Shown piece by piece: positions 1 through 57,805 of a stretch of 64,000 nt of DNA (position 1 is its first letter; every line of letters starts with the position of its first letter). The position numbers and the translations under genes were made by a program. The notes under the pieces are model-generated. The model ran no database searches. It had not been told where the DNA came from and saw only the letters and a program-made list of their open reading frames with translations. The stretch spans positions 7,274 to 71,273 of the forward strand of contig SIBU01000002.1 of assembly GCA_009695005.1 (NCBI GenBank). Reading direction: 5' to 3'. This DNA is from Candidatus Tayloriibacteriota bacterium (GTDB lineage: Bacteria; Patescibacteriota; Minisyncoccia; Phycocordibacterales; SIBU01).

Positions 1-798
1 AAAATTCAGTGCACCATAGGAATCCTTACTTTCAATTCAGAACGCACAATCAAGGAAACACTTGAGTCTGTTAAGAATTTTTCTGAAATTATTATTTGTG
101 ATGGCGGTAGTACCGACGAAACACTTAGTCTTGCTAGGGCCTATGGCGCGCGCATCATTGTGCAAGACCCGGAATATAAAAATCGAAATAATCAAATTGT
201 TGATTTTGCTGGAGTGAGAAATCAAATGCTCGCTGTTACAAATTGTCAGTGGTTTTTTTCTCTTGATTCAGATGAATTGATGACTCAAAAGCTTGAGATG
301 GAAATCGAGGTAGTTGTTTCCTCAAAACATCCGGCCACCACTTTTTGGGTGCCGAGAAAATATACTTTAAGTGGTGAAGTTGTGGATTGCGCCGCCACTT
401 ATCCTACAAAGCAGATGCGTTTCTTTCATCTCGGAGCGGTCAATGGTTTTATTAAAACTATTCATGAAAGAATTGAGGTTAAACAAGGATCGCCGGTTTC
501 TAGCTTGGAAAATTTTATGTTGGTTCCGATGAATCCGGACCCTCTTTTTCATAGGATGAAATGGAGTCATTACGTTGATTTGGAGCTGGTACGTAGACAA
601 AGAATTTCATTTTATGAATGGCTGTTGTTATGTTTGGAGAATTCCAAAATTTCTCTGCTTTTCATTTATCGATATGCGCGAAATTTATTTTTTTGCAAAG
701 GCAAGAAAATTCCTTGGAGTTTGGAGCGAGAGAGACATATTTATCATATAGATATGTGTAAGCGATTAGCACCGTTTAAAAAAAATAAAAATGGATAG
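1..798 (+). CDS. Glycosyltransferase family 2 (GT-A fold), 5'-partial (continues upstream of window)
   Basis: Frame 1 is open from base 1 (KIQCTIGILTFNSERTIKETLESV...IICDGGSTDETL...) and runs into ORF 160..798. It has the GT2 N-terminal signature (ILTFN, DGGSTD). Stop TAG at 796-798 overlaps the next ATG (791). Confidence 0.65.
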   Translation, partial: KIQCTIGILTFNSERTIKETLESVKNFSEIIICDGGSTDETLSLARAYGARIIVQDPEYKNRNNQIVDFAGVRNQMLAVTNCQWFFSLDSDELMTQKLEMEIEVVVSSKHPATTFWVPRKYTLSGEVVDCAATYPTKQMRFFHLGAVNGFIKTIHERIEVKQGSPVSSLENFMLVPMNPDPLFHRMKWSHYVDLELVRRQRISFYEWLLLCLENSKISLLFIYRYARNLFFCKGKKIPWSLERERHIYHIDMCKRLAPFKKNKNG

Positions 799-2191
799 AA
801 ACTCGATTACACGTTATTTTGATGAGCAGGTCTCTTCCAGGGAGTACTGGAAAAAACGTAACTGGTATTATCATAAAGTTGTGGAAAATTTGGTAAGTTT
901 TCTTGTGCCACCTTCAGGTTCAGTTTTGGAGATTGGTTCTGGAGTTGGGGATTTACTTTCTGTTTTAAAGGCAAACCATTCGGTTGGAATTGATTTGAGT
1001 TCAAAAATGGTTGAGGTGGCGAAAAAGAAACATCCTGAGTGTGAATTTAGAGTGATGGACGCTGAAGAGATGGAATTTTCGGAAACTTTTGATTATATTG
1101 TTTTGTCAGATTTGTTGGGGCATTTGGCTGATGTAGAAAAAGTTTTTCATAATTTAAAAAAAGTAAGTCATTCTAAGACTCGGGTGATTATTACTTATTA
1201 CAATTACGCATGGGAGCCGATTTTGCGTTTGGCTGAGACTTTGGGTTTGAAAGCGAAGCAACCTCTTCAGCATTGGCTTTCTGAAAAGGATATTGAAAAT
1301 TTGCTTTATTTGGCTGGATTTGAAGTTGTTAAAAGAGATAAAAAAATGCTTCTACCTTTTTATATTCCTTGGGTGACAGCATTTACTAACCGAATTATCG
1401 CCAATTTGCCGTTAATCAATCGCTTGTGTCTTATTCAGTATTTTGTTGCTAGACCGATTGATCAGGGATCAAGAAGCTGTTCTGTTTCTGTAATCATTCC
1501 AGCCAGAAATGAAAAGGGAAACATTGAACAAGCTCTTCGACGTATGCCTTATCTGGGCACTGAATGCGAAATTATTTTTGTTGAAGGACATTCTACCGAC
1601 GCCACTTTTGAGGAGATTAATAGGGTCGCCAAGTTATTTGAAAAGAATTTCAAAATTTCCGTCTTGTCCCAGGAAGGTCGCGGAAAGGGGGACGCAGTAA
1701 GAAAAGGTTTTGCTAAAGCTTCGGGTGACATATTGATGATTCTTGATGCCGATTTGACCGTGCCACCGGAAGAATTGGGAAAATTTTACGAAGCGCTATG
1801 TTCAGGAAAATGTGACTTTGCTAACGGCTCAAGGTTGATTTATCCGATGGAGAAGGAGGCTATGAGATTTTTTAATGTGCTCGGTAATAAATTTTTTAGT
1901 TTAATGTTCAGTTGGCTGCTGGGTCAAAGAATTAAAGACACTCTTTGTGGCACTAAGGTTTTGTTCAGAGAGGATTATGAAAAAATTATTAAAGGCAGGG
2001 CATATTTTGGCGACTTCGATCCTTTTGGTGACTTCGATCTTTTATTCGGTGCGGCTAAATTGAATTTAAAAATAATGGAAATTCCTGTTCATTATAAAGC
2101 CAGAACTTATGGTACGACTCAAATTGAAAGATGGAAACATGGCTGGCTCCTTTTGAAGATGTGCGTTTTTGCTGCACGTAAATTAAAATAG
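791..2191 (+). CDS. Bifunctional class I SAM methyltransferase / GT2 polyprenyl-phosphate glycosyltransferase (DPM1/ArnC/GtrB-like) fusion
   Basis: The N-terminal half has methyltransferase motif I (VLEIGSGVGDL). The C-terminal half has GT2 motifs (SVIIPARNE, ILMILDADLTVPPEE, ANGSRL), typical of dolichyl/undecaprenyl-phosphate sugar synthases. ATG at 791 overlaps the upstream stop by 8 bp. Confidence 0.6.
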   Translation: MDRNSITRYFDEQVSSREYWKKRNWYYHKVVENLVSFLVPPSGSVLEIGSGVGDLLSVLKANHSVGIDLSSKMVEVAKKKHPECEFRVMDAEEMEFSETFDYIVLSDLLGHLADVEKVFHNLKKVSHSKTRVIITYYNYAWEPILRLAETLGLKAKQPLQHWLSEKDIENLLYLAGFEVVKRDKKMLLPFYIPWVTAFTNRIIANLPLINRLCLIQYFVARPIDQGSRSCSVSVIIPARNEKGNIEQALRRMPYLGTECEIIFVEGHSTDATFEEINRVAKLFEKNFKISVLSQEGRGKGDAVRKGFAKASGDILMILDADLTVPPEELGKFYEALCSGKCDFANGSRLIYPMEKEAMRFFNVLGNKFFSLMFSWLLGQRIKDTLCGTKVLFREDYEKIIKGRAYFGDFDPFGDFDLLFGAAKLNLKIMEIPVHYKARTYGTTQIERWKHGWLLLKMCVFAARKLK

Positions 2192-2199
2192 CTATTTAA

Positions 2200-3690
2200 A
2201 TGGAAAATTATTTTGATAAATTATATCTTTTCGGTAAAAGGTTTCCCTTGCGGAGTTTTTTTCTACTGTCTGGTTTTTTGTTTATGATTTTATTTTCTCT
2301 ATTTCATTTGACTACACAGCCGAGACTTTGGCTTGATGAAGCGAAGAATATTGAGATTGCCCAAAGTTTCAACACTTCCGGTAAATTTGATATGGAGCTT
2401 TCTTTGGGACATTTCAGTGAAGTACCCCATCTTTTGCAATCTACAGGTTATCCGGTAACTATTCCTTTGGCGTTGACGTTTAGAATTTTTGGTTTTGGTC
2501 TGGTTCAGGCGCGCTTATTTATGCTTGCCTGGATGATTGTCGCCATGTTGGTTTCCTTTATTCTTTTAAAAAAGATAATCGGTTTTCGGTCGGCAGTTTT
2601 TTCGATACTGTTGATTGTGACTTTTGCGTCATTTTATGACAACGGTCGGCCGATGATGGGGGAGATTCCAGGGTTTCTATTTTTAGTTTCAGGTTTGTAT
2701 TATTGGCTTTGCCGTCAATCCCCGTGGATAGCAGGAGGTTTTTTTAGTTTGGCTGTAGTTTCTAAACCGTCTGTATATCTTTTGATAATTCCAACATTGT
2801 TTTTTGTACTCATATTTAGAGGGCAGAGAATTAAGAATTTGATGGTGTTTTTTGCTTCGATGTTACCCGCAGCTCTAGGTTGGATTTTTTTGGTAATGAG
2901 TCAGCCGTTTTCAAAGTTGGCCTGGTTTCAAATTATAGATATGTATGGAAATCCGTATAACGCAATTCCTATAATGCAAAATATTCTAAATAACATTATT
3001 TCCATTCCGCGTACTTTGACAATTGTTTATTTCGGTATTTTTTTTATTTTACTACTGTTGGTTAGGATAGGATTTAGAAAGGAAAATTATAATTTGTCTT
3101 TGGTATATGATTTTGTATTGATTTATTCTCTGTTTGCTTTTTTATATTACCTCCGAAGTCCCGGATGGCTACGCTATACGATCGTGTCGGAACTTTTGAT
3201 TTTAGCTATTCTGCCGAATGCTTTAGAAATTATCCTTTTGTATTTTTCAAGGAAATTTAAAAACGCACGGATTTTTAAGGGAGAAATTGTTTGGTATGCG
3301 AGCCTTGTTTTTCTGGTTGTCTTTCAAATTTTTCATTTATTCAATGGCGCGAAAATTTATTTCTCGGATAGTGATATCATGACCGCTAAATACATAGAAG
3401 ATAAATATTTTATGGAAACTGTAGGTTATGTGGACGCGCTTAATTTGGCGATTTTTAAGGATCGTAAATTGAGATTTATGACGATCGAAGGATCGGTGGT
3501 GCCAATTTTAAAAAGTAATAATACTTTTAAAAATGTTTCCCTTTATTCTCTCGCTGTTCTTCCAGAAGTTTTGGTCCTCAAAAAAGATATCGTTACTTCT
3601 TTTGCAGACGCCAATGTTCTCAATGACAATTACAAGGTGGACACTGTTATGAACGGTTATGCTATTTACGTTAAGAGTAAGATTGAGTAG
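2200..3690 (+). CDS. Polytopic membrane GT-C glycosyltransferase, ArnT/PMT_2 (GT39/GT83)-like
   Basis: Has 10 or more hydrophobic segments. The N-terminal loop motif (PRLWLDEAKNIEIAQSFNTSGKF) matches the ArnT/PMT family DE motif. It sits next to ArnC-like GT2 synthases. Confidence 0.5.
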   Translation: MENYFDKLYLFGKRFPLRSFFLLSGFLFMILFSLFHLTTQPRLWLDEAKNIEIAQSFNTSGKFDMELSLGHFSEVPHLLQSTGYPVTIPLALTFRIFGFGLVQARLFMLAWMIVAMLVSFILLKKIIGFRSAVFSILLIVTFASFYDNGRPMMGEIPGFLFLVSGLYYWLCRQSPWIAGGFFSLAVVSKPSVYLLIIPTLFFVLIFRGQRIKNLMVFFASMLPAALGWIFLVMSQPFSKLAWFQIIDMYGNPYNAIPIMQNILNNIISIPRTLTIVYFGIFFILLLLVRIGFRKENYNLSLVYDFVLIYSLFAFLYYLRSPGWLRYTIVSELLILAILPNALEIILLYFSRKFKNARIFKGEIVWYASLVFLVVFQIFHLFNGAKIYFSDSDIMTAKYIEDKYFMETVGYVDALNLAIFKDRKLRFMTIEGSVVPILKSNNTFKNVSLYSLAVLPEVLVLKKDIVTSFADANVLNDNYKVDTVMNGYAIYVKSKIE

Positions 3691-5113
3691 GCTTTTCTGT
3701 CGGAGTACCAGAAGTTTGTTTTGGATTTTTTAAATCTTTAACCTCTTTGACTTGAAGCCAAATTGAGATAATTATAAAAAATTCCGAGAAAATATATTTT
3801 GATGAATCAAGGGCTTTGCAGAACGACGAAGGGGAAGCAAAATCTCTCCATCCTAAATACATACAATCTGGTACAAAGGCGAGTAGTAAAGCAACAACCA
3901 ATAAGACCCAGGGAATGGTTCGCATCCGATCTTTTGACCAAGGGTGTTGTCCGACAGCGAGAGTTGACAGTGGAATAATCCATACAGCATTCATTGTCCA
4001 GGTCAAAGGTCCAAAAAGCATTAAAATCATAAGAATTGAATACCAATAAAGAAATTCCTTTTCGCTTGAAAGTCCCAAGTTTTCGATTTGAATTTTTTTG
4101 AGAGCCATATATGCCACGGGCAAAAATAAAGCCAAAAGCATTATAGAGATCAGTGTGGGACTGATTTGCCATTCACTGTTTAGATCGTTTGCTCTCATTG
4201 CGATAAAACGTGCTAAAGAGGCGTTGGGAGCGAATGACAAGTGAATGCCTTTAAACCATTGACCGTCCTTTTCAAGGCCGTAAGTGCTCCCCGGATTGCG
4301 TTCATTGTAATATTTTTCAAAATAACTATCGGGCAGTTTCATTTCCGATGTTCCGGCTTCTCCGTATTTTGCAATTCTTGGAAATTCCTTGACGATATAA
4401 TCAGAAACTGAACTTGGTCCGAGAAGAAGTGCTGTTAGAACGACAATCGTTACTCCTCCAAAAAAATATCCCGCTAGTATTTTCCACTGCTTTCTTAAAA
4501 TAAAAAAGATAGCTACGAAGCCTATGTGTAATTTAACCAACGTTGCGAAGGTCCATATAAAACCGGAAACAATTTCTTTTCGGCTTTTTCCAACCGCTAA
4601 GGCTATGGCCGAGATCGCAAGTAGGAGGGTCAGGTTATCGATCTGTCCGCGTTCCAGAGAAGTTAAAAGCGGAAAAAACCAGGAAGTGTAAATTCCAACT
4701 ATGAGATATTGCCAAAAATTTAATTTAAGTTTGAGAGATCGTATGGTGATAAAAATCGAAACTAACAAGCAAGTTAGAGAAAAGTACATCCAAAAAAACT
4801 TTGCAATTCCGTAAGTCATAAACGACGCTATCAGTTCGAAAGGTATTGCGGCTAGAGGAGGGTATAGATATCTGCTGTGAACGTAACGATCAAGACCGTC
4901 CCATATCGGTGGATTGGCGATTATGCCGTTTTTATATAGTGGAAAATCAAAAAGTAAATTTTGGCCGGTAGTGTAGTAAACCGAAAAATCCACTTGAACA
5001 CTGTCTTTTCCGAAGATGGCTATTTTTTCCTGTAATCTTATGATGGAAAATAATAAAAATATGCAAAGACTAATTTCGCAGATAATTTTTATTAATTTAG
5101 TGTTTGTTTTCAT
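3671..5113 (-). CDS. Polytopic membrane protein, putative GT-C-type (DUF2029/GT87-like) glycosyltransferase
   Basis: 501-aa ORF (3671..5176) with many TM helices. The ORF-track start at 5176 is TTG; the first ATG (MKTNTKLIKI..., 5111-5113) is used here. It converges on the upstream gene with a 20-bp overlap. Confidence 0.4.
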   Translation of the reverse strand: MKTNTKLIKIICEISLCIFLLFSIIRLQEKIAIFGKDSVQVDFSVYYTTGQNLLFDFPLYKNGIIANPPIWDGLDRYVHSRYLYPPLAAIPFELIASFMTYGIAKFFWMYFSLTCLLVSIFITIRSLKLKLNFWQYLIVGIYTSWFFPLLTSLERGQIDNLTLLLAISAIALAVGKSRKEIVSGFIWTFATLVKLHIGFVAIFFILRKQWKILAGYFFGGVTIVVLTALLLGPSSVSDYIVKEFPRIAKYGEAGTSEMKLPDSYFEKYYNERNPGSTYGLEKDGQWFKGIHLSFAPNASLARFIAMRANDLNSEWQISPTLISIMLLALFLPVAYMALKKIQIENLGLSSEKEFLYWYSILMILMLFGPLTWTMNAVWIIPLSTLAVGQHPWSKDRMRTIPWVLLVVALLLAFVPDCMYLGWRDFASPSSFCKALDSSKYIFSEFFIIISIWLQVKEVKDLKNPKQTSGTPTEKPTQSYS

Positions 5114-5327
5114 AAAACTATTTTTGTGACCAAAATCTGTCACCAAGTGCAAAAAGGGTTTTTCTGTATTGTTCAACTTGCTTTCCTTTCATTACTCTGT
5201 CGTTTTACTCGGTCTCACTTATTGCTGGGTTGTAAGAATAATCGAATGGTACTGAAGAAATCCTTGAACCGTACACTCTCTTTTGTTTCTTCTAGGTCGA
5301 TCGATTCCATGGATTATTCATTTAAAT

Positions 5328-6218
5328 TTATTTGTAACGAGATAAAAGATAATTTTCTAAGGATTTTTTCCAGGAAATTGTTTCTAAATTGTCAGAGTGC
5401 GCAAGGACAGTGCAAGTCGGACGTTTAACAGAGTGGGTTTTTTTGAATGAACATTTTTTTATGAGTGAAGTGTCGAGCTTAAGAATTTTTGCGACTTCCT
5501 TTGCAATGTCGTATTTAGTTACACCTTGTTCTTTTTTTGAGGCGCCGATTTGATAGATTTTTGTCGTATTAGGTTTTTTTTCAGATATAAGTTTAAGGGC
5601 TACATTGACTATATCTTTTGTCCAAACAGGAATATTGAATTGGTCATTTATCGCTTCGAGTAATTGATTTTGCTTAAGTGTTTTGACAACCATATCGATA
5701 AAAGTGTCACGACCGTCTCCATACAACCAACCGGCGCGTAAAATATAAAAATTCTCTGAAAAGTTTTTTCCGATTTGCTGAACGATTTGTTCCCCACCAC
5801 ATTTTGACCAACCGTAGACGTTTACAGGTGTAGGTAAATCATTTTCCACATACTTTTTCTTACTTCCACCGAAAATGTCGGAAGTACTGATTTGAATAAG
5901 TTTTGTGTCGGTAAGGTTGGATTCCTTGATTACCTCCGCGATGATCCCAGCTCCAATGGTATTGACGTTCCATGCGGTAAGCGGGTTTTTTTCACAGAAA
6001 TCTACATTTACCACAACCGCACAGTTTACTACGGCGTTGGGGCGATTTTCTGAAATTATTTTAGTGACTACTGTTTTGTCAGTTATGTCAGCGGATTCTT
6101 TGGAGTAAGCAATAATTTCCAAACCATTAGGTTTTCCAGATAAAGAAGCGAATTCTTTTCCAAGTAAACCATTTGAACCAAAGACAACAATTTTATTGTT
6201 AGTTTTTCTTGTAGTCAT
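5328..6218 (-). CDS. RmlD-like NAD(P)H-dependent NDP-4-keto-sugar reductase
   Basis: N-terminal Rossmann motif (KIVVFGSNGLLG). Has STSDIFGG (compare RmlD STDYVFDG) and YGWSK (YxxxK). ATG at 6216-6218. Confidence 0.5.
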   Translation of the reverse strand: MTTRKTNNKIVVFGSNGLLGKEFASLSGKPNGLEIIAYSKESADITDKTVVTKIISENRPNAVVNCAVVVNVDFCEKNPLTAWNVNTIGAGIIAEVIKESNLTDTKLIQISTSDIFGGSKKKYVENDLPTPVNVYGWSKCGGEQIVQQIGKNFSENFYILRAGWLYGDGRDTFIDMVVKTLKQNQLLEAINDQFNIPVWTKDIVNVALKLISEKKPNTTKIYQIGASKKEQGVTKYDIAKEVAKILKLDTSLIKKCSFKKTHSVKRPTCTVLAHSDNLETISWKKSLENYLLSRYK

Positions 6219-7389: not shown

Positions 7390-7462
7390 ATTTTGGCTGA
7401 TTTTAGGGGTCAATTGTTGCCTAATGCTAATGGATGGTGGCCGTGATATTATACCTTACACT

Positions 7463-9289: not shown

Positions 9290-9638
9290 AGCCAGATATT
9301 ACGCGTAATTGATTATCTCGCGGGTCGTACGGATGACTCTTCTAAGGAAAGTTTGAAAACCCTAGGCTTTAAAATCCCATTTGTGGTGAAGCCTTTAGTT
9401 GCATCCATCCGGGCTAACTACTAAACGAGCATTTTTAAGCTGACAAAAGCAAGCTGTGGGTACCAACAATATTTGTTTCAACAAAAAACTCGGTTTTTCT
9501 ATTCAAAAATCTATTGGGATCTCCGCGACGAAATGAATGATGTGTGTAGGGTGAAAGACGAAAAATGTTTTTTAAGGTTTTCTATGTCTCTTTTATATTT
9601 GGTTAAGTAAGATCAAATATAATTTTTTTCTGCACATG

Positions 9639-11348: not shown

Positions 11349-11358
11349 GGTGGAATAA

Positions 11359-17351: not shown

Positions 17352-17370
17352 GATTCGGGCGATACCTAAT

Positions 17371-17405: not shown

Positions 17406-17406
17406 G

Positions 17407-52081: not shown

Positions 52082-54406
52082 ATGGCTAATCAAAAAAATT
52101 CACGGAAGCAAAAAAAAGATGGTACTTCGGAAGAAGTGTCTCAGGTTTCTGTTACTCGTCAATCCAATGACATTGTTGACGTGGTGTTAAGGTCAATTAT
52201 TTTGTGTGGAATTTTTATTCTGCCGTTTCTTTGTCTTTTTGTTTCAAGTCATTTGTTTTTTCCTTTTATTACCGGAAAGAATTTTTCCTTTAGAATAATT
52301 GTAGAGATTATTGCTTGTCTGTGGATAATTTTGGCCCTCAGGGATCGTTCCGCTCTTCCGAAGTTTTCCAGAATTTTCCAGGCTTTTGGGGTTTTTGTGG
52401 CACTTATATTTATTTCCGATCTTTTAAGTCCAAATGTGAGTAAAAGTTTTTGGTCAAATTACGAGAGAATGGAAGGTTGGGTGACACTTGCTCATCTTTT
52501 TGTGCTGTTTGTGGTTTTGAGTTCTGTCATGACTAAAAAGGTTTGGGAGTGGTTGTTTAGAGTTTCTCTTTTTGTAAGTTTTATTATTTTTATTTACAGT
52601 TGTCGACAGCTTTTAGGTCAACTTGCTATACATCAAGGGGCTACACGCATTGACGCTACTATCGGTAATTCTGCATATCTTGGTGGATATATGCTATTCC
52701 ATGTTTTCTTCGCTTTGTATTTGCTTTCGGGGTATGCCAGAAGAAGTTACGAGACCTTTGAGTTTGAGGATTATTTTTGGATTATTTCTTACAGTGTTTT
52801 TGCGTTAGCGGATACTTTTATTCTTTATAAAACTGCAACCCGAGGCGCAACCATTGGTTTGGTAGCTGGAATAGTATGTGTGACAATAGGATTGGCGGTC
52901 TTCGAGAAGAAAAATAAAATATTACGCAGTGTCAGTATTGCAATTTTGGCTGTTATTGTTTTGGTGGGAGGTCTGTTTATTTTTCAAAGAAATTCAGATT
53001 TCGTTAAGAATCATGAGCCTCTTTTCCGTTTAGCCGCCTTTACCGATGATTTGTTAACTTTCGATACAAAGGCTATTTGTGAAGGTGAAATGAAATCACG
53101 TTGTTTGTTGTGGCCAGTGGCACTTAAGGGAGTGGGAGAAAGACCTCTTTTGGGTTGGGGACAAGAGAGTTTCAATTACGTCTTTAATAAATATTACGAC
53201 CCCTTGATGTTCCATCAAGAACAATGGTTTGATCGCACACACAATATTATTTTTGATTGGCTTATTGCAGGTGGAATTTTGGGACTTTTGGCCTATCTTT
53301 CAATTTTTGGTTTTACTTTTTATTACCTTTGGCGAAAGGGTAGCCCATTTTCTTTCTCAGAAAAAAGTTTGTTAACCGGATTGTTTGTTGGGTATTTTTT
53401 CCACAACCTTACTGTGTTCGACAACATAACCAGTTACATTCCTTTCATCATGGTTTTGGCCTATATTGATTCTTTTGTCGGTGTACCATCGCCTAAGGTT
53501 GAGGAGAAGGTTGGTGCTTTGGATAGTGGTTTGAAAAATCGTATGATTATTCCGCTTGTTTGTTTGGTTACGGTTTTCATACTTTATAAAGTTAACGCTC
53601 CTCCTATTTTGGCGGCCACTGAACTTATTCAAGCACTTTCGAATTTACAAGGTGGACCTGCTGTTAACTTGGCTCGTTTTGAAAAAGCCTTATCACACAG
53701 ATCATTTGGTGATCCCGAAATTCGTGAACAATTACTTCAAACGGCCACTCAAGCTTCCAACGCACCTAATCTTGATCAGAAAATTAAGGGCGAGTTCTTT
53801 AGTTTGGCGAGAAATGAAATGTTGCTTCAGCTCGAGCAGGCACCTAATGACGCAAGATATCAGTTGTTCAACGGCACATTCTTGATGGCTATAGGTGATT
53901 TGGATAATGCTATTTTGTATTTGAAAAAAGCGCAGGAACTTTCACCGAAAAAGCAGGCAATTCTTTTCTCTGTTGGTTCCGCTTATCTTTCTAAGAAGGA
54001 TTATCCGAATGCTGTGGCGACAATGAAAATTGCTTTTGACGGTGATCCAACCCTCAATGAGTCTCGTACTCTTTATGGATTGTCACTTATTTACGCCAAA
54101 CAACCGGAGCTTGCAGCCGAGGTGTTAAAACCCATTCCTCTTGATTCTGTTTTGGGCGATGAGCGATTTATAGTGGCATTTTACACAAGCGGATATTTTG
54201 AAAATGCTTTGCAGAGCGCGAATGCCTTGATCAAGAAGAATCCATCTAATGCGAATTATTATTTTATGCGTGCAGCTGTTCTTAATGGAACGGGTCGCAA
54301 AGCTGAAGCGATTGCTGATTTAAACAGAGGAGCGGAACTTAATCCTTCTGCCAAGGCTCAGGCTGATGATTACGTAAAACAAATTAAAGCAGGGAAGATG
54401 TTTTAG
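52082..54406 (+). CDS. O-antigen ligase/polymerase-like (Wzy_C) polytopic membrane protein fused to C-terminal TPR repeats
   Basis: About 12 TM segments in the first ~470 aa, with a Wzy_C-like loop. The C-terminal ~280 aa form TPR-like repeats (..AILYLKKAQELSPKK.., ..ANYYFMRAAVLNGTGRKAEAIADLNRGAELNP..). Confidence 0.55.
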   Translation: MANQKNSRKQKKDGTSEEVSQVSVTRQSNDIVDVVLRSIILCGIFILPFLCLFVSSHLFFPFITGKNFSFRIIVEIIACLWIILALRDRSALPKFSRIFQAFGVFVALIFISDLLSPNVSKSFWSNYERMEGWVTLAHLFVLFVVLSSVMTKKVWEWLFRVSLFVSFIIFIYSCRQLLGQLAIHQGATRIDATIGNSAYLGGYMLFHVFFALYLLSGYARRSYETFEFEDYFWIISYSVFALADTFILYKTATRGATIGLVAGIVCVTIGLAVFEKKNKILRSVSIAILAVIVLVGGLFIFQRNSDFVKNHEPLFRLAAFTDDLLTFDTKAICEGEMKSRCLLWPVALKGVGERPLLGWGQESFNYVFNKYYDPLMFHQEQWFDRTHNIIFDWLIAGGILGLLAYLSIFGFTFYYLWRKGSPFSFSEKSLLTGLFVGYFFHNLTVFDNITSYIPFIMVLAYIDSFVGVPSPKVEEKVGALDSGLKNRMIIPLVCLVTVFILYKVNAPPILAATELIQALSNLQGGPAVNLARFEKALSHRSFGDPEIREQLLQTATQASNAPNLDQKIKGEFFSLARNEMLLQLEQAPNDARYQLFNGTFLMAIGDLDNAILYLKKAQELSPKKQAILFSVGSAYLSKKDYPNAVATMKIAFDGDPTLNESRTLYGLSLIYAKQPELAAEVLKPIPLDSVLGDERFIVAFYTSGYFENALQSANALIKKNPSNANYYFMRAAVLNGTGRKAEAIADLNRGAELNPSAKAQADDYVKQIKAGKMF

Positions 54407-54553: not shown

Positions 54554-55615
54554 TTGTCTAAAAACATAATAGTAGTAACAAAAGACATTGCGGAATTTCT
54601 AATCTACTTTCTTCTCGTGTCTGCTTTGCGTGAAAGAGGTCACAATGTGACTGTGATCGCTGAGGGAATTTCACTCGATAAGTGGTTGGAAAAAGATGAG
54701 GCTGTTGCTCGTCATTTCTCCGGTTCCACGGAGTGTGAGTTCGAAATTTTTCTCGCTGGGCTAAAGCCGGATCTTGTTCTTACAGGTCTCGCTGATCCGA
54801 TTAATTGGGGGGAAAAGTTCGGACTAGCCGCTAACAAGTTGGGGATAAAGCTCGGTTACGTCATTGATGTTTGGGGCGCTGAGTCTCGGTCAACCGCAGT
54901 GCCGAATTTCATTTGCACTCTTGACAATTTTGCTAGAGAAAGAATCTTGAACTACCATCCCTTTGGAGCATCGATGCCCAAAGTTTACATTACGGGTTCA
55001 CCGGCAATGGATTCTTTGGCTAAGGTCAAGATTCCGACTGGGTTTCTTGGTAATCTTGCAAATTGCAACGAGCGTACTATTCTGTTTTGCGGGCAAAATA
55101 TCTTCTCTGCCTCAGCTCTCGAGGGTTTGATTCAGGCACTGAATGATTGTCAAAAAGAGATACCTTGCATTCTTATTCCGAGATTTCATCCGAAATTCAT
55201 GCAACGAGCTGATCATTGTGCACTTTGGAATGCCATTTTGGCAAAGGCCAAAGGGTATGTGCTTCACGTGCCAACATCAACCACATCGCAACAGTTGATG
55301 ATGTTGGCCGGACTTACGGTTAGTGTGTTTTCGAATGCATTAATCGAGGCGGCCGCCTTGGGGTCACTTCCTGTTAGTTGGAATTCAGAGAACGGTCGGA
55401 AAAATATGAGCTCTGTCTTTGGCGGTCTGACACGTTTCCCATTGGTGGATTGTGGGTGTGCTGTCGAAGTGGAAACTCCGGCAGATTTTATTAGTGTCCT
55501 CAGGATGGCCCCCGTGGATTTTCAGAATAGGATCCGTCGGTGTAAGGCAATGTATCGAGGTGATGGTAATAATACCCAGCGTGTAACAGAGGCCGTCACG
55601 GCTGAGCTTGCTTAG
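54554..55615 (+). CDS. Hypothetical protein, possibly GT-B-like/capsule-biosynthesis-type transferase; GC-rich island
   Basis: TTG start with a strong SD (AAGGAGGAG). Motif YITGSPAMDSL. No confident family. GC is visibly higher than flanks. Confidence 0.3.
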   Translation: MSKNIIVVTKDIAEFLIYFLLVSALRERGHNVTVIAEGISLDKWLEKDEAVARHFSGSTECEFEIFLAGLKPDLVLTGLADPINWGEKFGLAANKLGIKLGYVIDVWGAESRSTAVPNFICTLDNFARERILNYHPFGASMPKVYITGSPAMDSLAKVKIPTGFLGNLANCNERTILFCGQNIFSASALEGLIQALNDCQKEIPCILIPRFHPKFMQRADHCALWNAILAKAKGYVLHVPTSTTSQQLMMLAGLTVSVFSNALIEAAALGSLPVSWNSENGRKNMSSVFGGLTRFPLVDCGCAVEVETPADFISVLRMAPVDFQNRIRRCKAMYRGDGNNTQRVTEAVTAELA

Positions 55616-55866
55616 TTGTTTTGCTGGTTTAAGTATCACCTGTTCCAATTTCGGTTGGGGCAGGTTTTTTTATGTCGAGGAATTGCCTCGACAGAGAGTT
55701 CGTGTGGTGTAATTTCAAACCCGTCGTTTTAAAATTGCTCTGGAGTAGGGTAAATCTTTGGAGTATGATTAAGTTGTGTATTATTGTGAGTGATGGATGT
55801 CGTTGATTGCGATTATGCGATGTTGGTTTAGACTCGAGTTTTATAGGTTCTCTGTTTTGTAATTTT

Positions 55867-56904
55867 ATGGAAGAAAACGTACCACTATCGAAATATACAA
55901 CTTTTAAGATTGGCGGATCAGCCCGCTATTTTTTTCGTATAAGAAAAGTTGAAGATATAATTAGTACTATCGATTTTGCTAGGAAAGAAAATTTACCAAT
56001 TTTTGTTTTGGGCGGTGGTTCAAATTTGTTGGTAAATGACGATGGTTTCAGAGGGGTAATCGCAAAAAATGAGATTTTAGGATTGTCGTATGTGGATGTT
56101 TTGGGTGGAGTTGAGGTTGCATCTGGTTCGGGTGAATTGTGGGATGAATTCGTGGACGCTATGGTCAATCGGAATCTTTACGGTTTGGAAAATCTTTCAG
56201 GCATACCCGGTACTGTAGGGGCATCACCGGTTCAAAATATCGGAGCGTATGGTGTTGAGGTTAAGGATTTTGTTATTGCAGTCGAGACAATCGATATGAG
56301 AAGTGGGGCGGCTAGAATTTTTAGCAATTCAGAATGCCATTTTGGATACAGGGACAGTTTTTTTAAGACCCCTGAAGGAAAAAATTTTTTCATAATCAAG
56401 GTCACTTTTCTTTTGAAGAATAGTTCACCACTTAATCTCGAGTATAAGGATTTGAAAAATTATTTTTCCTTAGAGTCTCGAAAAAATATTGTTCCCACGC
56501 TTCAGCTTGTAAGGAGTGTCGTTTTGGAAATTCGTAAGGGAAAATTCCCTGATTTAAAAAACGTTGGTACTGCAGGGTCGTTTTTCAAAAATCCAATAAT
56601 TTCTAAAGAGAAATTTGAAGATTTAAGAAGGAAATTCCCAAACTTGCCGGGTTTCAAGATACCAAGCACTTCAGGTCAAGATTTGATGATTAAGATTCCC
56701 TTGGCTTGGATTCTTGATAATGTGTGTCATCTTAAGGGTTACGTGAAAGAAGGCGTTGGACTTTTTGAATTGCAACCGATTGTTTTGGTGAGTGCTGACG
56801 GAACCAGTTCATCTCAGGTTCGGTCTCTTGCTGTTGAAGTTTCCCGATGTGTCAAAGAAAAAGTAGGTATTGAGATCGAGTGGGAAGTGAATTATTTGTC
56901 GTGA
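55867..56904 (+). CDS. murB: UDP-N-acetylenolpyruvoylglucosamine reductase
   Basis: LSKYTTFKIGGSARYFF...PIFVLGGGSNLLVNDDGFRGVI is the FAD-binding MurB N-terminus. Start taken at ATG 55867 rather than the upstream ORF start at 55807. Confidence 0.8.
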   Translation: MEENVPLSKYTTFKIGGSARYFFRIRKVEDIISTIDFARKENLPIFVLGGGSNLLVNDDGFRGVIAKNEILGLSYVDVLGGVEVASGSGELWDEFVDAMVNRNLYGLENLSGIPGTVGASPVQNIGAYGVEVKDFVIAVETIDMRSGAARIFSNSECHFGYRDSFFKTPEGKNFFIIKVTFLLKNSSPLNLEYKDLKNYFSLESRKNIVPTLQLVRSVVLEIRKGKFPDLKNVGTAGSFFKNPIISKEKFEDLRRKFPNLPGFKIPSTSGQDLMIKIPLAWILDNVCHLKGYVKEGVGLFELQPIVLVSADGTSSSQVRSLAVEVSRCVKEKVGIEIEWEVNYLS

Positions 56905-56974
56905 TTTTCATCTTGATTTTCCACAATAAAGTTTTTATGTTAATCTGACTTATAAGTTAAAATAAATAAAATAT

Positions 56975-57805
56975 ATGATATTTGTCTCAAATCTAAAAAA
57001 TAGTTTTTACAACCCTGTGTTTTATAGATCTTTGAAGGATAAGTCTCTGGGCTTTTCAATGAAATATTTTTTTTCATTTATAGTAATTTTGGCATTTATA
57101 GTCGCTTTTATTTTAGGAAGCGAGTTGGCTCCTCTATTTTCCGCGGAGAGTCTCAAAAAATTTGTAAGTTTTTATCCTAAGGAATTGTCACTTACCATCA
57201 AGAATGGGGTGGTTTCGAGCAATGTTTCGGAGCCGTATGTCCTCAAGGCGACATCTGTCAAAAAGGGCGAGCATAGTAATTATTTGGTAGTTGATACTAG
57301 TAGTGATTCATCTTTGGATACTTTTCGAAAATATGATACGGATGTTTTGATAGGACGAAATTTTATTGTTAGTGAAAAAGGGAAAAGTCAGATTCAAGTG
57401 ACTGATATCAGTCGTTTGCCTGATTTTACTTTTAATCAGGAATTATTGTTTCATTGGGCCGATGTCATAGGTAGTCATCATTTGGCGCTTTCGTTCGGCT
57501 TTTTCTTTATTCTATGGACTGCGTTTGTATTTTATTTTACTTTTAATTTGGTATGGTTGGCCGTTATGGCACTTATAGTTTTGTTGATTGGTAAGGTAAA
57601 GGCTGTTTCTTTGTCATATAGCCAGTCTTTAAAAATCACACTATTTGCTTCTACTTTGCCACTAATATTAAAATCAATTTTTGTTGTTGCTGCTATCTCT
57701 GCGCCATTTCCGCTATTTTTCAGTGTGCTGATTGTTGTTGTGGTTATTGCCAACATTAAAGCAGATGAGATTGAAATTTCTCATAATCCTTCTGAAGTTG
57801 CGTAA
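56975..57805 (+). CDS. Membrane protein of unknown function
   Basis: An N-terminal TM segment, then a soluble segment, then 3-4 C-terminal TM helices. No motif recognised. Confidence 0.4.
   Translation: MIFVSNLKNSFYNPVFYRSLKDKSLGFSMKYFFSFIVILAFIVAFILGSELAPLFSAESLKKFVSFYPKELSLTIKNGVVSSNVSEPYVLKATSVKKGEHSNYLVVDTSSDSSLDTFRKYDTDVLIGRNFIVSEKGKSQIQVTDISRLPDFTFNQELLFHWADVIGSHHLALSFGFFFILWTAFVFYFTFNLVWLAVMALIVLLIGKVKAVSLSYSQSLKITLFASTLPLILKSIFVVAAISAPFPLFFSVLIVVVVIANIKADEIEISHNPSEVA

Follow-up and report, generated by a model that had tools for sequence, protein, structure and literature searches.

A large surface-glycan locus in an uncultured Candidatus Taylorbacteria genome pairs a core kept in relatives with an accessory region of further sugar genes

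In Geobacillus and Paenibacillus, the gene clusters for S-layer glycans combine the ABC transporter Wzm/Wzt with the chain-capping methyltransferase-glycosyltransferase WsaE and a Wzy_C O-oligosaccharyltransferase, and an Asn-synthase homologue and FdtA also occur in such clusters (PMC2943079). A TPR region lies at the C terminus of both WsfB and PglL (PMC2943079). A curated Parcubacterium genome holds 20 glycosyltransferases and zero lipid A/LPS genes (PMC5220378). Here we analyzed a window of 64,000 nucleotides from an uncultured, tiny-genome member of Candidatus Taylorbacteria (CPR/Patescibacteria), nearly all of which is filled by a surface-glycan super-locus of at least 63 kb. Rather than a new kind of system, the locus is recognisably related to O-antigen and S-layer-glycan machinery that is already known. 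The proteins closest to the window's SecA all come from Patescibacteria MAGs (60-68% identity).

The first-pass annotation had described a cell-surface glycan locus of very large size within a genome that is compact and low in GC; this was borne out, the genome being that of a CPR/Patescibacteria member. The extent it gave (1-57000) is corrected at both ends: the window start truncates the locus, which continues leftward for 7.3 kb of glycan genes (Ugd-like, GtrA, GT2, Asn-synthase homologue, PMT and GT4) until the source contig itself runs out, and on the right it stops at ~55.7 kb, ahead of murB. Fifty-nine ORFs were scanned against Pfam and NCBIfam. Among the 52 at positions 1-55,670 that reach 100 aa, 48 matched glycan-assembly families, so that the reading of most ORFs as glycan enzymes withstood the homology search; coding density was 93.7%. 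Probable non-glycan genes number four to five (the mini pyruvate kinase, the Nudix-like and HD-like proteins, and possibly the aldo-keto reductase at 41987-42958). Scores for many of the enzymes do not reach the NCBIfam equivalog cut-offs (for example HddA-like, 184 vs 600; PseF-like, 97 vs 206; NeuB, 357 vs 400), and the sugar identities suggested by these matches are provisional.

Comparison with relatives divided the locus in two. Only the right-hand ~25 kb has counterparts in relatives (window ~33/35-55.7 kb; 51-85% amino-acid identity); none exists in them for the left ~35 kb, which is therefore accessory. In a sister Taylorbacteria genome (L085 + L088) gene order matches from the Maf-like gene through SecA, with proteins 51-85% identical, and its whole locus spans ~28-28.5 kb, ending at NAD synthase. 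L086 also keeps the core, with the cytidylyltransferase directly abutting the NeuB fusion, and more distant Paceibacteria keep Wzt-Wzm-Gmd-ligase-MurB-SecA. Thus, the proposed mosaic, stepwise assembly is right, chiefly by virtue of this synteny, which separates core from variable cassettes; GC heterogeneity, also invoked for it, gives barely any support, being mild (GC3 standard deviation 0.041 vs 0.028 expected from sampling; 7 outlier genes). Gene orientation divides the locus into 13 strand blocks and the window into 14, and no IS elements, tRNAs or repeats were found. The right-hand features are as follows.

35263-36198, -, MptE/DUF115 (Maf-like) candidate ulosonic-acid transferase; PF01973 30.8 bits vs 34.6
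36104-38011, -, NeuB-SAF ulosonic-acid synthase fused to a xylose-isomerase-like TIM barrel; PF03102 297 bits, PF08666, PF01261
38008-39015, -, SAM methyltransferase; PF13489 74 bits
39017-40096, -, GT10 alpha-1,3/4-fucosyltransferase family; PF00852 65 bits; L085 orthologue 61%
40113-41057, -, probable SAM methyltransferase (weak); PF13847 E 4.5e-4, GCGTG motif; L085 orthologue 75%
41171-41854, +, HD-like phosphohydrolase, locus role uncertain; HD E 0.13; weak HD gene at the matching place in L085
41987-42958, +, aldo-keto reductase, locus role uncertain; PF00248 162 bits
43003-43932, -, second GDP-fucose-synthase-like SDR (candidate ColC-type reductase); NF047922 243 bits, below 500; L085 orthologue 78%
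44054-45073, -, SDR dehydratase/epimerase; PF01370 148 bits
45073-46754, -, split transketolase-like ThDP enzyme; C half 45073-46011 and N half 45951-46754; PF02779/PF02780, PF00456; kept in L085 at 68-72% identity
46717-47985, -, Wzt ABC ATPase with divergent C-terminal domain; PF00005 76 bits, Wzt_C 29.1 bits vs 30.4
47990-48808, -, Wzm ABC-2 permease; PF01061 54 bits; 85% identity to relatives
48819-49766, -, GDP-L-fucose synthase (Fcl); NF047922 484 bits vs cut-off 500
49787-50890, -, Gmd; PF16363 501 bits
50948-51196, -, HTH_17 DNA-binding protein, 82 aa; PF12728 48 bits; position kept in relatives
51271-51954, +, CMP-ulosonic-acid cytidylyltransferase; PF02348 108 bits
52082-54406, +, Wzy_C (O-antigen-ligase family) membrane protein with C-terminal TPR; PF04932 63.5 bits, TPR families
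54554-55615, +, lineage-restricted protein (g52), UDP-GlcNAc 2-epimerase-like fold; AF2 pLDDT 91.7
55638-55665, +, terminator-like hairpin, 12 bp stem and T-run; right boundary of the locus
55807-56904, murB, housekeeping, beyond the locus

At family level, the core sugars comprise GDP-fucose synthesis (Gmd, Fcl) with the GT10 and GT11 fucosyltransferases, a ColD/E1-type 3-dehydrase route to a 3,6-dideoxyhexose, and a CMP-ulosonic-acid route of g52, the NeuB-TIM-barrel fusion, the cytidylyltransferase and the Maf-like transferase. Also assigned to the core by family are several methyltransferases, the split transketolase-like module, the Wzm/Wzt exporter, the HTH regulator and the Wzy_C-TPR ligase. 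The NeuB fusion, a widespread architecture, scored 357 bits against TIGR03569 (below 399.65) and matched PseI/NeuB in the PDB at E 1e-52; Maf-like orthologues (48-51% identity) adjoin it in relatives. The methyltransferase at 38008-39015 is functionally linked to it, and a methyltransferase-NeuB fusion is present in a 959-aa homologue (P0085). The cytidylyltransferase is PseF/NeuA-like and not KdsB-like (PseF 97 bits vs KdsB at most 60 bits). Furthermore, g52 had no Pfam, NCBIfam or PDB sequence match and only 21 homologues; when its AF2 model was searched against the PDB with Foldseek, the best 50 matches were all 2-epimerases (E 1e-14 to 1e-11), making it a candidate for the NeuC/MnaA step. 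The HTH_17 gene adjoins gmd in L086 and L088, and its product is a candidate locus regulator.

The accessory region (~35 kb or more) contributes, again at family level, dTDP-sugar 2-deoxygenation and C-methylation, an FdtA/aminotransferase 3-amino-sugar route, a heptose-like kinase/nucleotidyltransferase/phosphatase set, extra GT2 and GT4 enzymes, and GT-C enzymes; GtrA lies just beyond the window. The features at the left, up to position 35273, are as follows.

1-798, +, GT2 glycosyltransferase; frame open from base 1, start codon 8 nt left of the window; DSDE motif; public gene call of 268 aa with PF00535
791-2191, +, SAM-methyltransferase and GT2 fusion; Methyltransf_23 residues 31-181, Glycos_transf_2 233-362
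2200-3690, +, GT-C, PMT_2 type, ~8 or more transmembrane helices by hydropathy; PF13231 33.7 bits vs cut-off 26.1
3671-5176, -, GT-C, GT87 type (polyprenyl-phosphate-sugar dependent family); PF09594 73 bits; 8 predicted transmembrane helices
5328-6218, -, RmlD-like NDP-hexose 4-ketoreductase; PF04321 190 bits, TIGR01214 169 bits, below equivalog cut-off
6199-7413, -, DegT-family sugar 3-dehydrase (ColD/E1 type); RfbH-like 223 bits; FSFFAAHH, His for catalytic Lys
7322-8188, +, GT2 glycosyltransferase; PF00535 84 bits
8222-9289, +, GT4-type (GT-B) glycosyltransferase; PF00534, PF13692
9639-10613, -, GFO/IDH/MocA oxidoreductase; PF01408, PF22725
10620-11348, -, half-size NDP-hexose 2,3-dehydratase; PF03559 171 bits; one Nudix-like domain, not two
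11624-12487, -, RmlD-like 4-ketoreductase; PF04321 161 bits; GC3 0.233, the window minimum
12761-14137, -, NDP-hexose C-methyltransferase (TylC3 type); Methyltransf_13, Methyltransf_23, Methyltransf_14
14402-15691, -, GT4-type glycosyltransferase; PF00534 81 bits
15845-16654, +, mini pyruvate kinase, barrel only; PK family matches; probably a non-glycan interruption
16800-17351, +, Nudix-like protein; NUDIX E 0.0011; probably a non-glycan interruption
17407-18639, -, sugar 3-dehydrase (RfbH/E1/ColD type); NF011936 412 bits vs cut-off 423; SSFYASHH, His for Lys
18614-19564, -, SDR epimerase/reductase; PF01370 139 bits
19567-20601, -, ORF; TIGR01181 388 bits, above cut-off 365
20537-21337, -, glucose-1-phosphate thymidylyltransferase-like (RmlA-like); PF00483 194 bits, TIGR01207 245 bits, below cut-off
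21469-22635, +, 388-aa protein, weak hint of an alpha-1,6-fucosyltransferase (FUT8/NodZ) fold; FUT8_N_cat E 0.059, NodZ E 0.18; no Pfam/NCBIfam family at E 0.001, no PDB match
22625-23779, +, GT4-type glycosyltransferase; PF13692 87.5 bits
23766-24800, -, GT2 glycosyltransferase; PF00535 98.5 bits
24797-25777, -, GHMP sugar kinase, closest to heptose-7-phosphate kinase HddA; GHMP N-/C-terminal domains; NF049969 184 bits, far below cut-off 600
25886-26764, -, protein with C-terminal HIT-like motif HPHAH, possibly a nucleotide transferase or hydrolase; HIT E 0.08, PDB HIT protein E 0.012
26816-27745, +, GalE-like SDR epimerase; TIGR01179 231 bits, below 262
27742-28461, +, sugar-1-phosphate nucleotidyltransferase (ManC/HddC-like); PF00483 166 bits
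28445-28960, +, GmhB-like HAD phosphatase; NF006506 170 bits vs cut-off 178
28964-29851, -, GT11 alpha-1,2-fucosyltransferase family; PF01531 91 bits; perfect 32-nt palindrome at 29171-29202
30013-31113, -, genuine DegT-family sugar aminotransferase; PF01041 370 bits; FSFYPTK motif, catalytic Lys kept
31110-31526, -, FdtA-type 3,4-ketoisomerase; PF05523 122.5 bits
31534-32475, -, second dTDP-glucose 4,6-dehydratase-like SDR; TIGR01181 323 bits, below 365
32480-33499, -, GT8-like protein, DxD motif (DAD); PF01501 22.8 bits vs 24.3, sub-threshold
33496-34452, -, FkbM-family methyltransferase; PF05050 30.4 bits
34449-35273, -, TIGR04325 (LIC12133-type) methyltransferase; 207.5 bits vs cut-off 80

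An aminotransferase reading was rejected for two of the three DegT-family proteins, which have His where the catalytic Lys would stand and are 3-dehydrases; orthologues of the one at 17407-18639 (47-49% identity) are present in relatives' loci. The 2,3-dehydratase aligns to EvaA residues 41-244 only (E 1e-45), and the adjacent oxidoreductase at 9639-10613 is, from this adjacency, probably the NDP-hexose 3-ketoreductase that partners it. Mini pyruvate kinases are elsewhere fused to enolase, phosphoglycerate mutase or glycerate kinase.

Eleven glycosyltransferases scored above Pfam cut-offs, plus two to three weak ones. The firm set comprises GT2 enzymes (1-798, 791-2191 with its methyltransferase fusion, 7322-8188, 23766-24800), GT4-type enzymes (8222-9289, 14402-15691, 22625-23779), GT11 (28964-29851), GT10 (39017-40096) and the GT-C proteins PMT_2 (2200-3690) and GT87 (3671-5176), our summary count of GT-C-type enzymes being three. 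With the three sub-threshold candidates (GT8-like, 32480-33499; MptE/Maf-like, 35263-36198; the FUT8/NodZ hint, 21469-22635), the earlier figure of more than 11 is acceptable. More than seven methyltransferases, in contrast, was an over-count: six lie within 1-57000 (791-2191, N-terminal domain; 12761-14137; 33496-34452; 34449-35273; 38008-39015; 40113-41057, weak), and a seventh and a SET protein, both at 61-62 kb, are outside the locus. Family matches upheld the four nucleotide-sugar chemistries (dTDP, GDP-fucose/colitose-type, heptose-like and CMP-ulosonate), as well as Wzm/Wzt, the GT-C route and the Wzy_C-TPR fusion.

We favor, with a probability of roughly 60%, a model in which the locus makes a methyl-capped, lipid-carried glycan that is exported by the ABC transporter and transferred by the ligase to a non-LPS acceptor, most likely a surface protein. 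[quoted passage not shown] The Wzy_C-TPR enzyme would then transfer it outside the membrane to a non-LPS acceptor, most probably a surface protein such as an S-layer protein or type IV pilin (cf. WsaB/WsfB/PglL), and GT-C enzymes would add further sugars on the outer face from polyprenyl-phosphate donors. Compared with the copies in relatives, Wzt is 67-78% identical in its ATPase domain but 58%, 33% or undetectably so in its C-terminal domain, a confined divergence that would be expected of a cap-specific binding module. The ligase has 13 predicted transmembrane helices (AF2 pLDDT 89.9) and Arg and His residues invariant in the 302-388 loop; helix number, the positive-inside rule and loop charges predict that both catalytic loop and TPR domain face outward. 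Its family is conserved across Parcubacteria, adjoining murB-secA throughout; Foldseek with the model returned TPR proteins only. Neither the window nor its flanks (7.3 kb on the left, 8.5 kb on the right) yielded a phosphoglycosyltransferase of the WbaP/Bac_transf or WecA/MraY family that could initiate the chain, which leaves the pathway's first step unaccounted for, and no S-layer or pilin gene was identified near the locus.

The locus could instead make several independent glycans and not one product, as the 13 strand blocks and the separate GT-C/GtrA module would allow. Among the products first offered, an S-layer or protein glycan fits best, and a classical O-antigen is least likely because the lineage is reported, from other CPR organisms, to be without LPS genes (PMC5220378). 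A chimera or misassembly, raised earlier as a possible refutation, is ruled out by independent assemblies, in which the sequence recurs at 100% identity: Logan contigs built from separate read sets matched 11143-29200 and 29632-64000 at 99.99-100% identity, and the single gap coincides with the perfect 32-nt palindrome inside the intact GT11 ORF.

The favored model, a capped glycan exported and ligated to a surface protein, has accessory cassettes that probably diversify the coat for host attachment and phage evasion. The methyltransferase-GT2 fusion at 791-2191 has a domain order identical to that of WsaE. The locus ligase has a C-terminal TPR domain, as do WsfB and PglL (PMC2943079), and the likeness to Gram-positive S-layer glycosylation would, by analogy, lie in transfer to a surface protein.

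We translated 59 non-overlapping ORFs of at least 100 aa from the window and scanned all of them against Pfam and 40 of them against NCBIfam. Genes for glycan assembly were found to run nearly continuously from base 1 to ~55,670, and the families recovered across 1-55,670 bore out the view of the first-pass annotation that the region consists mostly of glycan enzymes. Coding density is 93.7%, many stop and start codons overlap, and the locus is divided into 13 strand blocks. The source contig (ENA) is 86,247 bp long, with window base 1 at about contig base 7274, and in the public gene list the stretch from the window to the left contig end holds genes for a Ugd-like protein, GtrA, a GT2, an Asn-synthase homologue, a PMT-type GT-C and a GT4. 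Because glycan genes continue leftward to the contig end, the locus spans at least 63 kb and is cut by that end. At its right edge, a terminator-like hairpin with a 12-bp stem (55638-55665) follows the last locus gene, after which come murB, DUF1189 and secA; promoter and terminator scans of the window gave background level overall, and the strong hairpin after the last locus gene is the one used. The closest SecA proteins are all from Patescibacteria MAGs (60-68% identity); NCBI lists the identical proteins under Candidatus Taylorbacteria bacterium, a taxon of the Parcubacteria group. The DUF1189 membrane protein (56975-57805, +) lies between murB and secA here and in a sister Taylorbacteria genome (L088), and a perfect 14-nt inverted repeat with a 2-nt spacer between DUF1189 and secA (57824-57853; GAAAACGGCGCGCC / GGCGCGCCGTTTTC) is probably a terminator or regulatory hairpin.

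We compared the locus with that sister Taylorbacteria genome, GCA_016188455.1, which contributes two loci (L085 and L088). Its gene order is the same as that of the right-hand part of the window, from the Maf-like gene to SecA.

Gene order in the sister Taylorbacteria genome, with amino-acid identity to the window where given
1-3: Maf-like, 51%; NeuB fusion, 77%; GT10, 61%
4-6: methyltransferase, 75%; HD-like; Fcl-like reductase, 78%
7-10: SDR, 69%; split transketolase, 68-72%; Wzt, 70%; Wzm, 85%
11-14: Fcl; Gmd; HTH_17; cytidylyltransferase
15-19: ligase-TPR, 64%; homologue of g52, the protein encoded between ligase and murB; MurB; DUF1189; SecA

The sister locus ends at an NAD synthase ~7 kb past the Maf-like gene and totals ~28.5 kb. 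The core is also present in a second relative (L086), and more distant Paceibacteria retain Wzt-Wzm-Gmd-ligase-MurB-SecA. The left ~33 kb of the window and the 7.3 kb beyond it have no counterpart in the relatives compared. Comparative synteny thus supports calling the locus a mosaic, whereas GC heterogeneity, a ground given in the first-pass annotation, barely does: the standard deviation of GC3 is 0.041 vs 0.028 from sampling, several of the 7 outlier genes encode orphan proteins of unusual amino-acid composition, and as proof of horizontal assembly this is too weak to carry the claim. A mobile-element origin of the mosaic is unsupported, as the window contains no tRNA, no Rfam family, no long direct or inverted repeats and no IS elements, its sole 'repeats' being Rossmann-motif paralogy. 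The sister locus (L088) carries toxin-antitoxin-type genes at 6378-6862, 9145-9987 and 20405-20852 (ParE-like, NTP_transf_2/HepT, and HicA + UPF0150), and its wzm and wzt are separated by an inserted gene for a PDDEXK_3 nuclease. The window has none of these genes.

The window encodes the following glycosyltransferases, firm by Pfam or, where marked, sub-threshold.

Glycosyltransferases and candidates
1-798, 791-2191, 7322-8188 and 23766-24800: four GT2 enzymes, firm
8222-9289, 14402-15691 and 22625-23779: three GT4-type enzymes, firm
28964-29851: GT11, firm
39017-40096: GT10, firm
2200-3690 (PMT_2) and 3671-5176 (GT87): two GT-C enzymes, firm
32480-33499: GT8-like candidate, sub-threshold
35263-36198: MptE/Maf-like candidate, sub-threshold
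21469-22635: protein with a faint FUT8/NodZ hint, sub-threshold

PDB sequence searches gave no significant match for the protein at 21469-22635 and only noise for the GT87 and Maf-like proteins. Methyltransferases are fewer than the more than seven counted in 1-57000 by the first-pass annotation, since the Pfam and NCBIfam scans found only 6 there.

Methyltransferases
791-2191: N-terminal methyltransferase domain, fused to GT2
12761-14137: TylC3-type C-methyltransferase, read from a TTG start (the public gene call starts elsewhere)
33496-34452: FkbM methyltransferase
34449-35273: TIGR04325 (LIC12133-type) methyltransferase, 207 bits vs a cut-off of 80
38008-39015: methyltransferase
40113-41057: methyltransferase, weak

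The nucleotide-sugar enzymes include Gmd (501 bits) and Fcl (484 bits, cut-off 500), and two fucosyltransferase families (GT10 and GT11) are present alongside. A candidate for the ColC-type partner of a 3-dehydrase is another Fcl-like reductase (43003-43932, 243 bits). Alignment of the three DegT proteins placed His at the catalytic-Lys position in two of them, 17407-18639 (SSFYASHH) and 6199-7413 (FSFFAAHH), whereas the third, 30013-31113, retains the catalytic Lys (FSFYPTK). His in place of the catalytic Lys is the signature of ColD/E1/SpnQ-type sugar 3-dehydrases, and the score of 17407-18639 against the RfbH model (412 bits, cut-off 423) is in line with it. At the family level, a colitose-type set (Gmd, Fcl, His-type DegT and Fcl-like reductase) thus appears to be present, in which the dehydrases could act on GDP-, dTDP- or CDP-linked sugars. 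The earlier suggestion of a 'colitose-like' GDP sugar is reasonable given Gmd/Fcl and the His-type DegT proteins, but there is only one true amino-sugar route. For the dTDP sugars, RmlB scores above its equivalog cut-off (388 vs 365) and an RmlA-like enzyme is also present; a second RmlB-like enzyme, FdtA and the true aminotransferase are predicted to lead to a 3-amino-3,6-dideoxyhexose. No RmlC or 3,5-epimerase was found among the window ORFs, and therefore no L-rhamnose is predicted.

The same part of the locus holds a set for 2-deoxygenation and branching.

2-Deoxygenation/branching set
10620-11348 (-): 2,3-dehydratase
9639-10613: GFO-type reductase
12761-14137: C-methyltransferase
11624-12487 and 5328-6218: RmlD-like reductases

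All four families of the NDP-2,6-dideoxy/3-C-methyl route occur here next to one another, with the dehydratase spanning only the N-terminal half of EvaA. Characterised 2,3-dehydratases such as EvaA consist of two Nudix-like domains and ~470 aa. The protein encoded here has 242 aa and a single domain, with a flanking gap of 275 bp and no space for a second domain, and its activity is uncertain because the match is limited to EvaA residues 41-244; it could work as a homodimer or be the product of a decayed gene. A heptose-like set scored against NCBIfam comprises an HddA-like GHMP kinase (184 vs 600), an HddC-like nucleotidyltransferase (107 vs 300) and a GmhB-like protein (170 vs 178). No SIS/GmhA protein was found among the window ORFs by Pfam, and the protein adjoining the set ends in a HIT-like HPHAH motif. 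A split transketolase-like enzyme, two SDRs and an aldo-keto reductase lie at 42-46.8 kb.

A further module would supply an ulosonic acid; it includes the first of these two proteins and, as a candidate, the second.

36104-38011 (-): NeuB-SAF synthase fused to a xylose-isomerase-like TIM barrel (AP_endonuc_2)
54554-55615 (+): g52, a protein with an epimerase-like predicted fold

The NeuB domain matches PF03102 at 297 bits and PseI/NeuB in the PDB at E 1e-52 to 1e-48. No substrate is assigned to the fusion, because it scores under the equivalog cut-offs of TIGR03569 and TIGR03586. The cytidylyltransferase (PF02348, 108 bits) scores better as PseF-like than as KdsB, with 97 bits for PseF, below the cut-off of 206, and directly adjoins the NeuB fusion in the second relative. 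The Maf-like protein and two to three methyltransferases also belong to the module, in which no PseB/PseC/PseH or LegB/C/H step was recognised. g52 has no Pfam, NCBIfam or PDB sequence match and only 21 homologues. Its AF2 model (pLDDT 91.7) matched UDP-GlcNAc 2-epimerases (WecB, MnaA, NeuC) in all of the best 50 PDB fold matches (E 1e-14 to 1e-11, TM 0.6-0.7), and on the basis of this modelled fold g52 is a candidate for the missing first step of the CMP-ulosonate route. In both genomes examined, this one and the sister Taylorbacteria genome, g52 sits between the ligase gene and murB; a 368-aa gene between wzt and the cytidylyltransferase gene of the second relative was considered as a g52 homologue and rejected, being a weak GT10-like protein instead. 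The architecture of the NeuB-SAF-AP_endonuc_2 fusion is uncharacterised but occurs widely: over 100 cluster representatives are 46-82% identical to the protein found here, and those that carry names come from Parcubacteria, Rokubacteria, Orenia marismortui, Nitrospinota and two archaeal groups, Nanoarchaeia and Helarchaeota; one homologue (959 aa, P0085) also has a fused SAM methyltransferase.

Export and transfer are represented by one exporter pair and one ligase. Wzm (47990-48808; PF01061, 54 bits) adjoins Wzt (46717-47985; PF00005, 76 bits) on the same strand, and the Wzt_C domain match of 29.1 bits lies just under the Pfam cut-off of 30.4. Compared with its relatives, Wzt is 67-78% identical in the ATPase domain; identity in the C-terminal domain is 58%, then 33%, and then undetectable. 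The cap-recognising Wzt C-terminal domain belongs to the E. coli O8/O9a paradigm (PMC2943079), and the divergence seen here would be the behaviour expected of a cap-recognising module. No MOP/Polysacc_synt flippase (Wzx), Wzy polymerase or Wzz was found among the window ORFs or in the flank gene lists, and the only Wzy_C protein in the window has ligase-type architecture. This ligase (52082-54406, 774 aa; PF04932, 63.5 bits) has its Wzy_C domain at residues 241-406 and TPR at 575-757. Its AF2 model (pLDDT 89.9) contains 13 membrane helices, and loop charges predict an N-terminus inside, with the 302-388 loop and the C-terminal TPR outside. R316, R340, R385 and H387, which fall within the predicted outward loop, are invariant in 30 homologues. 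Wzy_C together with a conserved Arg/His loop is common to WaaL ligases and protein O-oligosaccharyltransferases and does not discriminate between them, and a PDB sequence search with the ligase gave TPR matches only. The ligase-TPR has 4,519 homologues at E <=1e-10, of which the best 120 are all Wzy_C+TPR proteins of ~650-850 aa, spread across Parcubacteria.

The gene families, their arrangement, the conserved core and the C-terminal divergence of Wzt, together with the predicted outward placement of the ligase loop and TPR, would fit a route in which a lipid-linked heteroglycan is assembled in the cytoplasm, capped by methylation and exported by Wzm/Wzt, after which the Wzy_C-TPR enzyme would transfer it to an acceptor. 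The GT-C enzymes, with GtrA and GT2 polyprenyl-phosphate-sugar synthases, might decorate the glycan or glycosylate proteins on the outer face. The main gaps of this model are the initiating transferase and the acceptor. No Bac_transf or Glycos_transf_4 phosphoglycosyltransferase was found in the 59 window ORFs or the flank gene lists, and the gene for a WecA/WbaP-type enzyme may lie in another part of the genome. Among the window ORFs, Pfam gave no match to an S-layer or pilin family.

The CPR cell envelope has been described as unresolved, and a curated Parcubacterium genome is without lipid A/LPS genes (PMC5220378). Because of the latter, the S-layer glycan system of Geobacillus and Paenibacillus is the closest described analogue. 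This analogy (Wzm/Wzt, WsaE, Wzy_C enzymes, TPR, the Asn-synthase homologue and FdtA), together with the absence of LPS from the curated Parcubacterium, leads us to favour a protein acceptor, to which we give roughly even odds. A wall- or lipid-anchored polymer ranks next, and a true O-antigen is unlikely. Of the products proposed in the first-pass annotation (O-antigen, capsule or S-layer/protein glycan), the protein glycan is thus the one retained at those odds, and the O-antigen the one disfavoured.

It is possible that several independent glycan systems lie side by side, an ABC/ligase core next to separate polyprenyl-phosphate-sugar/GT-C systems (Pmt-type O-glycosylation, Gtr-type decoration) and nucleotide-sugar cassettes for other acceptors; this overlaps the main explanation and does not exclude it. 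The 13 strand blocks, the limitation of synteny with relatives to the right ~25 kb, the grouping of GT-C enzymes, GtrA and a PMT at the far left and the housekeeping-type genes (mini pyruvate kinase, Nudix-like) that break up the locus all point this way. However, ~71 kb of known sequence contains one exporter pair and one ligase only, with no Wzx flippase or Wzy polymerase, and the cassettes are contiguous, with no unrelated operons except a 1.5-kb PK/Nudix insert.

We consider it unlikely that the product is a wall- or lipid-anchored polysaccharide (secondary cell-wall polymer, teichoic-like polymer or lipoglycan) and not a protein glycan, with Wzm/Wzt acting as TagGH, g52 providing UDP-ManNAc for a linkage unit and the Wzy_C-TPR enzyme attaching the polymer to lipid or peptidoglycan. 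The fold of g52 is that of MnaA/WecB epimerases, including Paenibacillus alvei MnaA (9cm8), the ligase-g52-murB adjacency is conserved, and the near-universal presence of the ligase family in Parcubacteria suggests an envelope housekeeping role. Against this, no LCP (LytR-CpsA-Psr) ligase was found in the window or flank gene lists, nor TagF-type polymerase, TagO or TagA in the available sequence, and the predicted outward TPR domain suggests recognition of a protein partner. Furthermore, Wzy_C enzymes transfer to lipid A-core or proteins and are not known to transfer to peptidoglycan.

A classical LPS O-antigen, exported by Wzm/Wzt and ligated by a WaaL-type enzyme to lipid A-core in a diderm cell, is highly improbable: the match to the Wzy_C 'O-antigen ligase' family, Wzm/Wzt and the typical sugars (fucose, colitose-type, 3-amino) would suit it, but the organism is a CPR bacterium of the Parcubacteria group, for which a curated genome is without lipid A/LPS genes (PMC5220378), the gene lists for ~80 kb of contig contain no lpx, kds, waa, lpt or bam gene, and the cytidylyltransferase scores PseF-like over KdsB.

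It is scarcely credible that the locus owes its size to a chimeric assembly in which glycan clusters from several organisms were joined: the contig is metagenome-assembled, every Logan contig breaks at ~29.2 kb and a few genes have deviant GC3, but window 11143-29200 and 29632-64000 are recovered at 99.99-100% identity in independent Logan assemblies of three read sets, two ~36-kb contigs of one sample abut at 29.2 kb, a perfect 32-nt palindrome sits exactly at the break, the GT11 ORF is intact across it, and overall composition is uniform (GC 0.34-0.42). The misassembly that the first-pass annotation had itself raised was thus sought in independent assemblies and not found. The palindrome (29171-29202; TAAAGGATAATTTTTC and GAAAAATTATCCTTTA) lies inside the GT11 gene (28964-29851), exactly where every Logan contig ends; it accounts for a de Bruijn-graph break at 29.2 kb, a technical cause and not a chimera. 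By our own estimate, the chance expectation of such a 32-nt palindrome in 64 kb is far below 1.

Three neighbouring observations concern genes of other kinds. At 15845-16654 (+), a 269-aa pyruvate kinase consists of the A-domain barrel only, without the B 'lid' or the C domain and with catalytic motifs intact. In an exhaustive search, around twelve cluster representatives (257-269 aa) aligned with it over the full length. The same barrel also occurs in fusion proteins, whose partners are enolase, His_Phos_1 phosphoglycerate-mutase-like domains or glycerate kinase (DUF4147+MOFRL); in one protein of 1092 aa, glycerate kinase, enolase and mini pyruvate kinase are all joined. These fusions with enolase, phosphoglycerate mutase and glycerate kinase are the reason for placing it in lower glycolysis, and they point to what may be a distinct minimal pyruvate kinase family; a role as a glycan enzyme (PEP supply or pyruvylation) was rejected on the same ground. 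Downstream of secA and a NUDIX gene, 61029-62239 (+) encodes a SAM methyltransferase overlapping a SET-domain protein (PF00856, 56 bits); bacteria do not commonly have lysine methyltransferases of the SET type. Finally, ~6 kb right of the window end (18252-18658 of locus L001), two very small ORFs (74 and 63 aa) that closely precede acetate kinase match the two ends of phosphoketolase, XFP_N and XFP_C, and seem to be what is left of a phosphoketolase gene after its deletion.

All component families are already known and the MAG is public and auto-annotated, so that the locus is a new example and not a new principle. It is notable for its size relative to a CPR genome, for the clear split between core and accessory parts, for an antibiotic-type deoxysugar cassette in a surface locus and for a lineage-wide ligase-TPR beside murB-secA. 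A typical CPR genome is ~1 Mb, of which at least 63 kb would be roughly 6%; a very reduced genome thus spends an unusually large share on what is predicted to be a complex, heavily methylated glycan containing fucose and ulosonate. Because CPR bacteria live attached to other cells, surface display is central to their biology and to phage recognition. The locus separates a conserved core, including the Parcubacteria-wide Wzy_C-TPR transferase, from strain- or species-specific additions, and it offers concrete candidates for experiment in the ligase, the NeuB-isomerase fusion and the epimerase-like g52. We propose, tentatively and with considerable doubt, that Paceibacteria/Parcubacteria share a lineage-wide, LPS-independent glycan display (Wzy_C-TPR beside murB-secA, Wzm/Wzt, fucose and a methylated ulosonic acid from the NeuB-isomerase fusion), that it has been expanded here to at least 63 kb (probably ~6% of the genome) by accessory cassettes including an antibiotic-type 2-deoxy/C-methyl route not otherwise tied to surface polymers, and that this coat is what chiefly determines how these episymbionts attach to hosts and how susceptible they are to phages. 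CPR genomes are known to be rich in glycosyltransferases and surface modifications (PMC5220378, PMC12911398).

Several described systems resemble parts of the locus. The antibiotic deoxysugar pathways (EvaA-E, TylX3/TylC1/TylC3, SpnO/N/Q) share with 5.3-21.3 kb, at the family level, a 2,3-dehydratase, a 3-ketoreductase, a C-methyltransferase, a 4-ketoreductase and an E1/SpnQ-type 3-dehydrase; here, in contrast, these lie within a surface-glycan locus that contains neither NRPS nor polyketide genes, the 2,3-dehydratase is a single-domain and not a two-domain protein, and no 3,5-epimerase was detected. Nonulosonic-acid pathways with Maf transferases (Campylobacter, Helicobacter, Leptospira) likewise combine a NeuB synthase, a CMP-transferase, an MptE/DUF115 Maf-like protein, a TIGR04325 LIC12133-type methyltransferase and a 2-epimerase-fold protein, for which g52 is the candidate here, but in this locus the synthase carries a xylose-isomerase-like TIM barrel and all scores are under equivalog cut-offs. 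The ~80 kb examined yielded no flagellin gene, and the acceptor would therefore differ from that of the Maf systems. The E. coli O8/O9a ABC pathway (WbdA/WbdD, Wzm/Wzt, WaaL) has in common with the locus Wzm/Wzt, a Wzt C-terminal domain that may diverge with the glycan, potential capping methyltransferases, a Wzy_C-family ligase and the lack of Wzx, Wzy and Wzz; it differs in that the present lineage is reported without lipid A-core, WecA was not found, the ligase possesses one additional transmembrane helix as well as a predicted outward TPR, and Wzt_C scores 29.1 vs 30.4. PglL/PilO O-glycosylation systems (Neisseria, Pseudomonas) use short Wzx-flipped oligosaccharides, whereas the exporter here is of the ABC type and the genes present point to a methylated chain of considerable length and complexity. 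The two are alike in a Wzy_C enzyme with C-terminal TPR, and PglL transfers lipid-linked glycan to proteins outside the membrane (PMC2943079); CPR bacteria carry type IV pili (PMC5220378).

The slg clusters of Geobacillus stearothermophilus NRS 2004/3a and Paenibacillus alvei CCM 2051T (WsaA-F/WsaP, WsfA-H/WsfP; PMC2943079) differ from this locus, which is 3-4 times larger and adds fucose, ulosonic-acid, heptose-like and deoxy/C-methyl modules and three GT-C enzymes; the available sequence has no WbaP-type initiating enzyme, no S-layer structural gene and no rmlC, and the protein acceptor is suggested here by analogy. These S-layer systems possess Wzm/Wzt, the methyltransferase-GT enzyme WsaE and the Wzy_C O-oligosaccharyltransferases WsaB and WsfB, WsfB having a C-terminal TPR as PglL does, and their clusters include an Asn-synthase homologue and FdtA chemistry (PMC2943079). 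The present locus resembles them in a host reported, by lineage, to be without LPS, in the Wzm/Wzt exporter, in a possible counterpart of the soluble methyltransferase-GT multidomain enzyme (the WsaE-like 791-2191, with one N-terminal methyltransferase and one GT2 domain, where WsaE has two GT domains), in a wsfA-like Asn-synthase homologue just left of the window, in FdtA-type chemistry, in nucleotide-sugar genes inside the cluster and in a Wzy_C transferase with a C-terminal TPR, as in WsfB and PglL.
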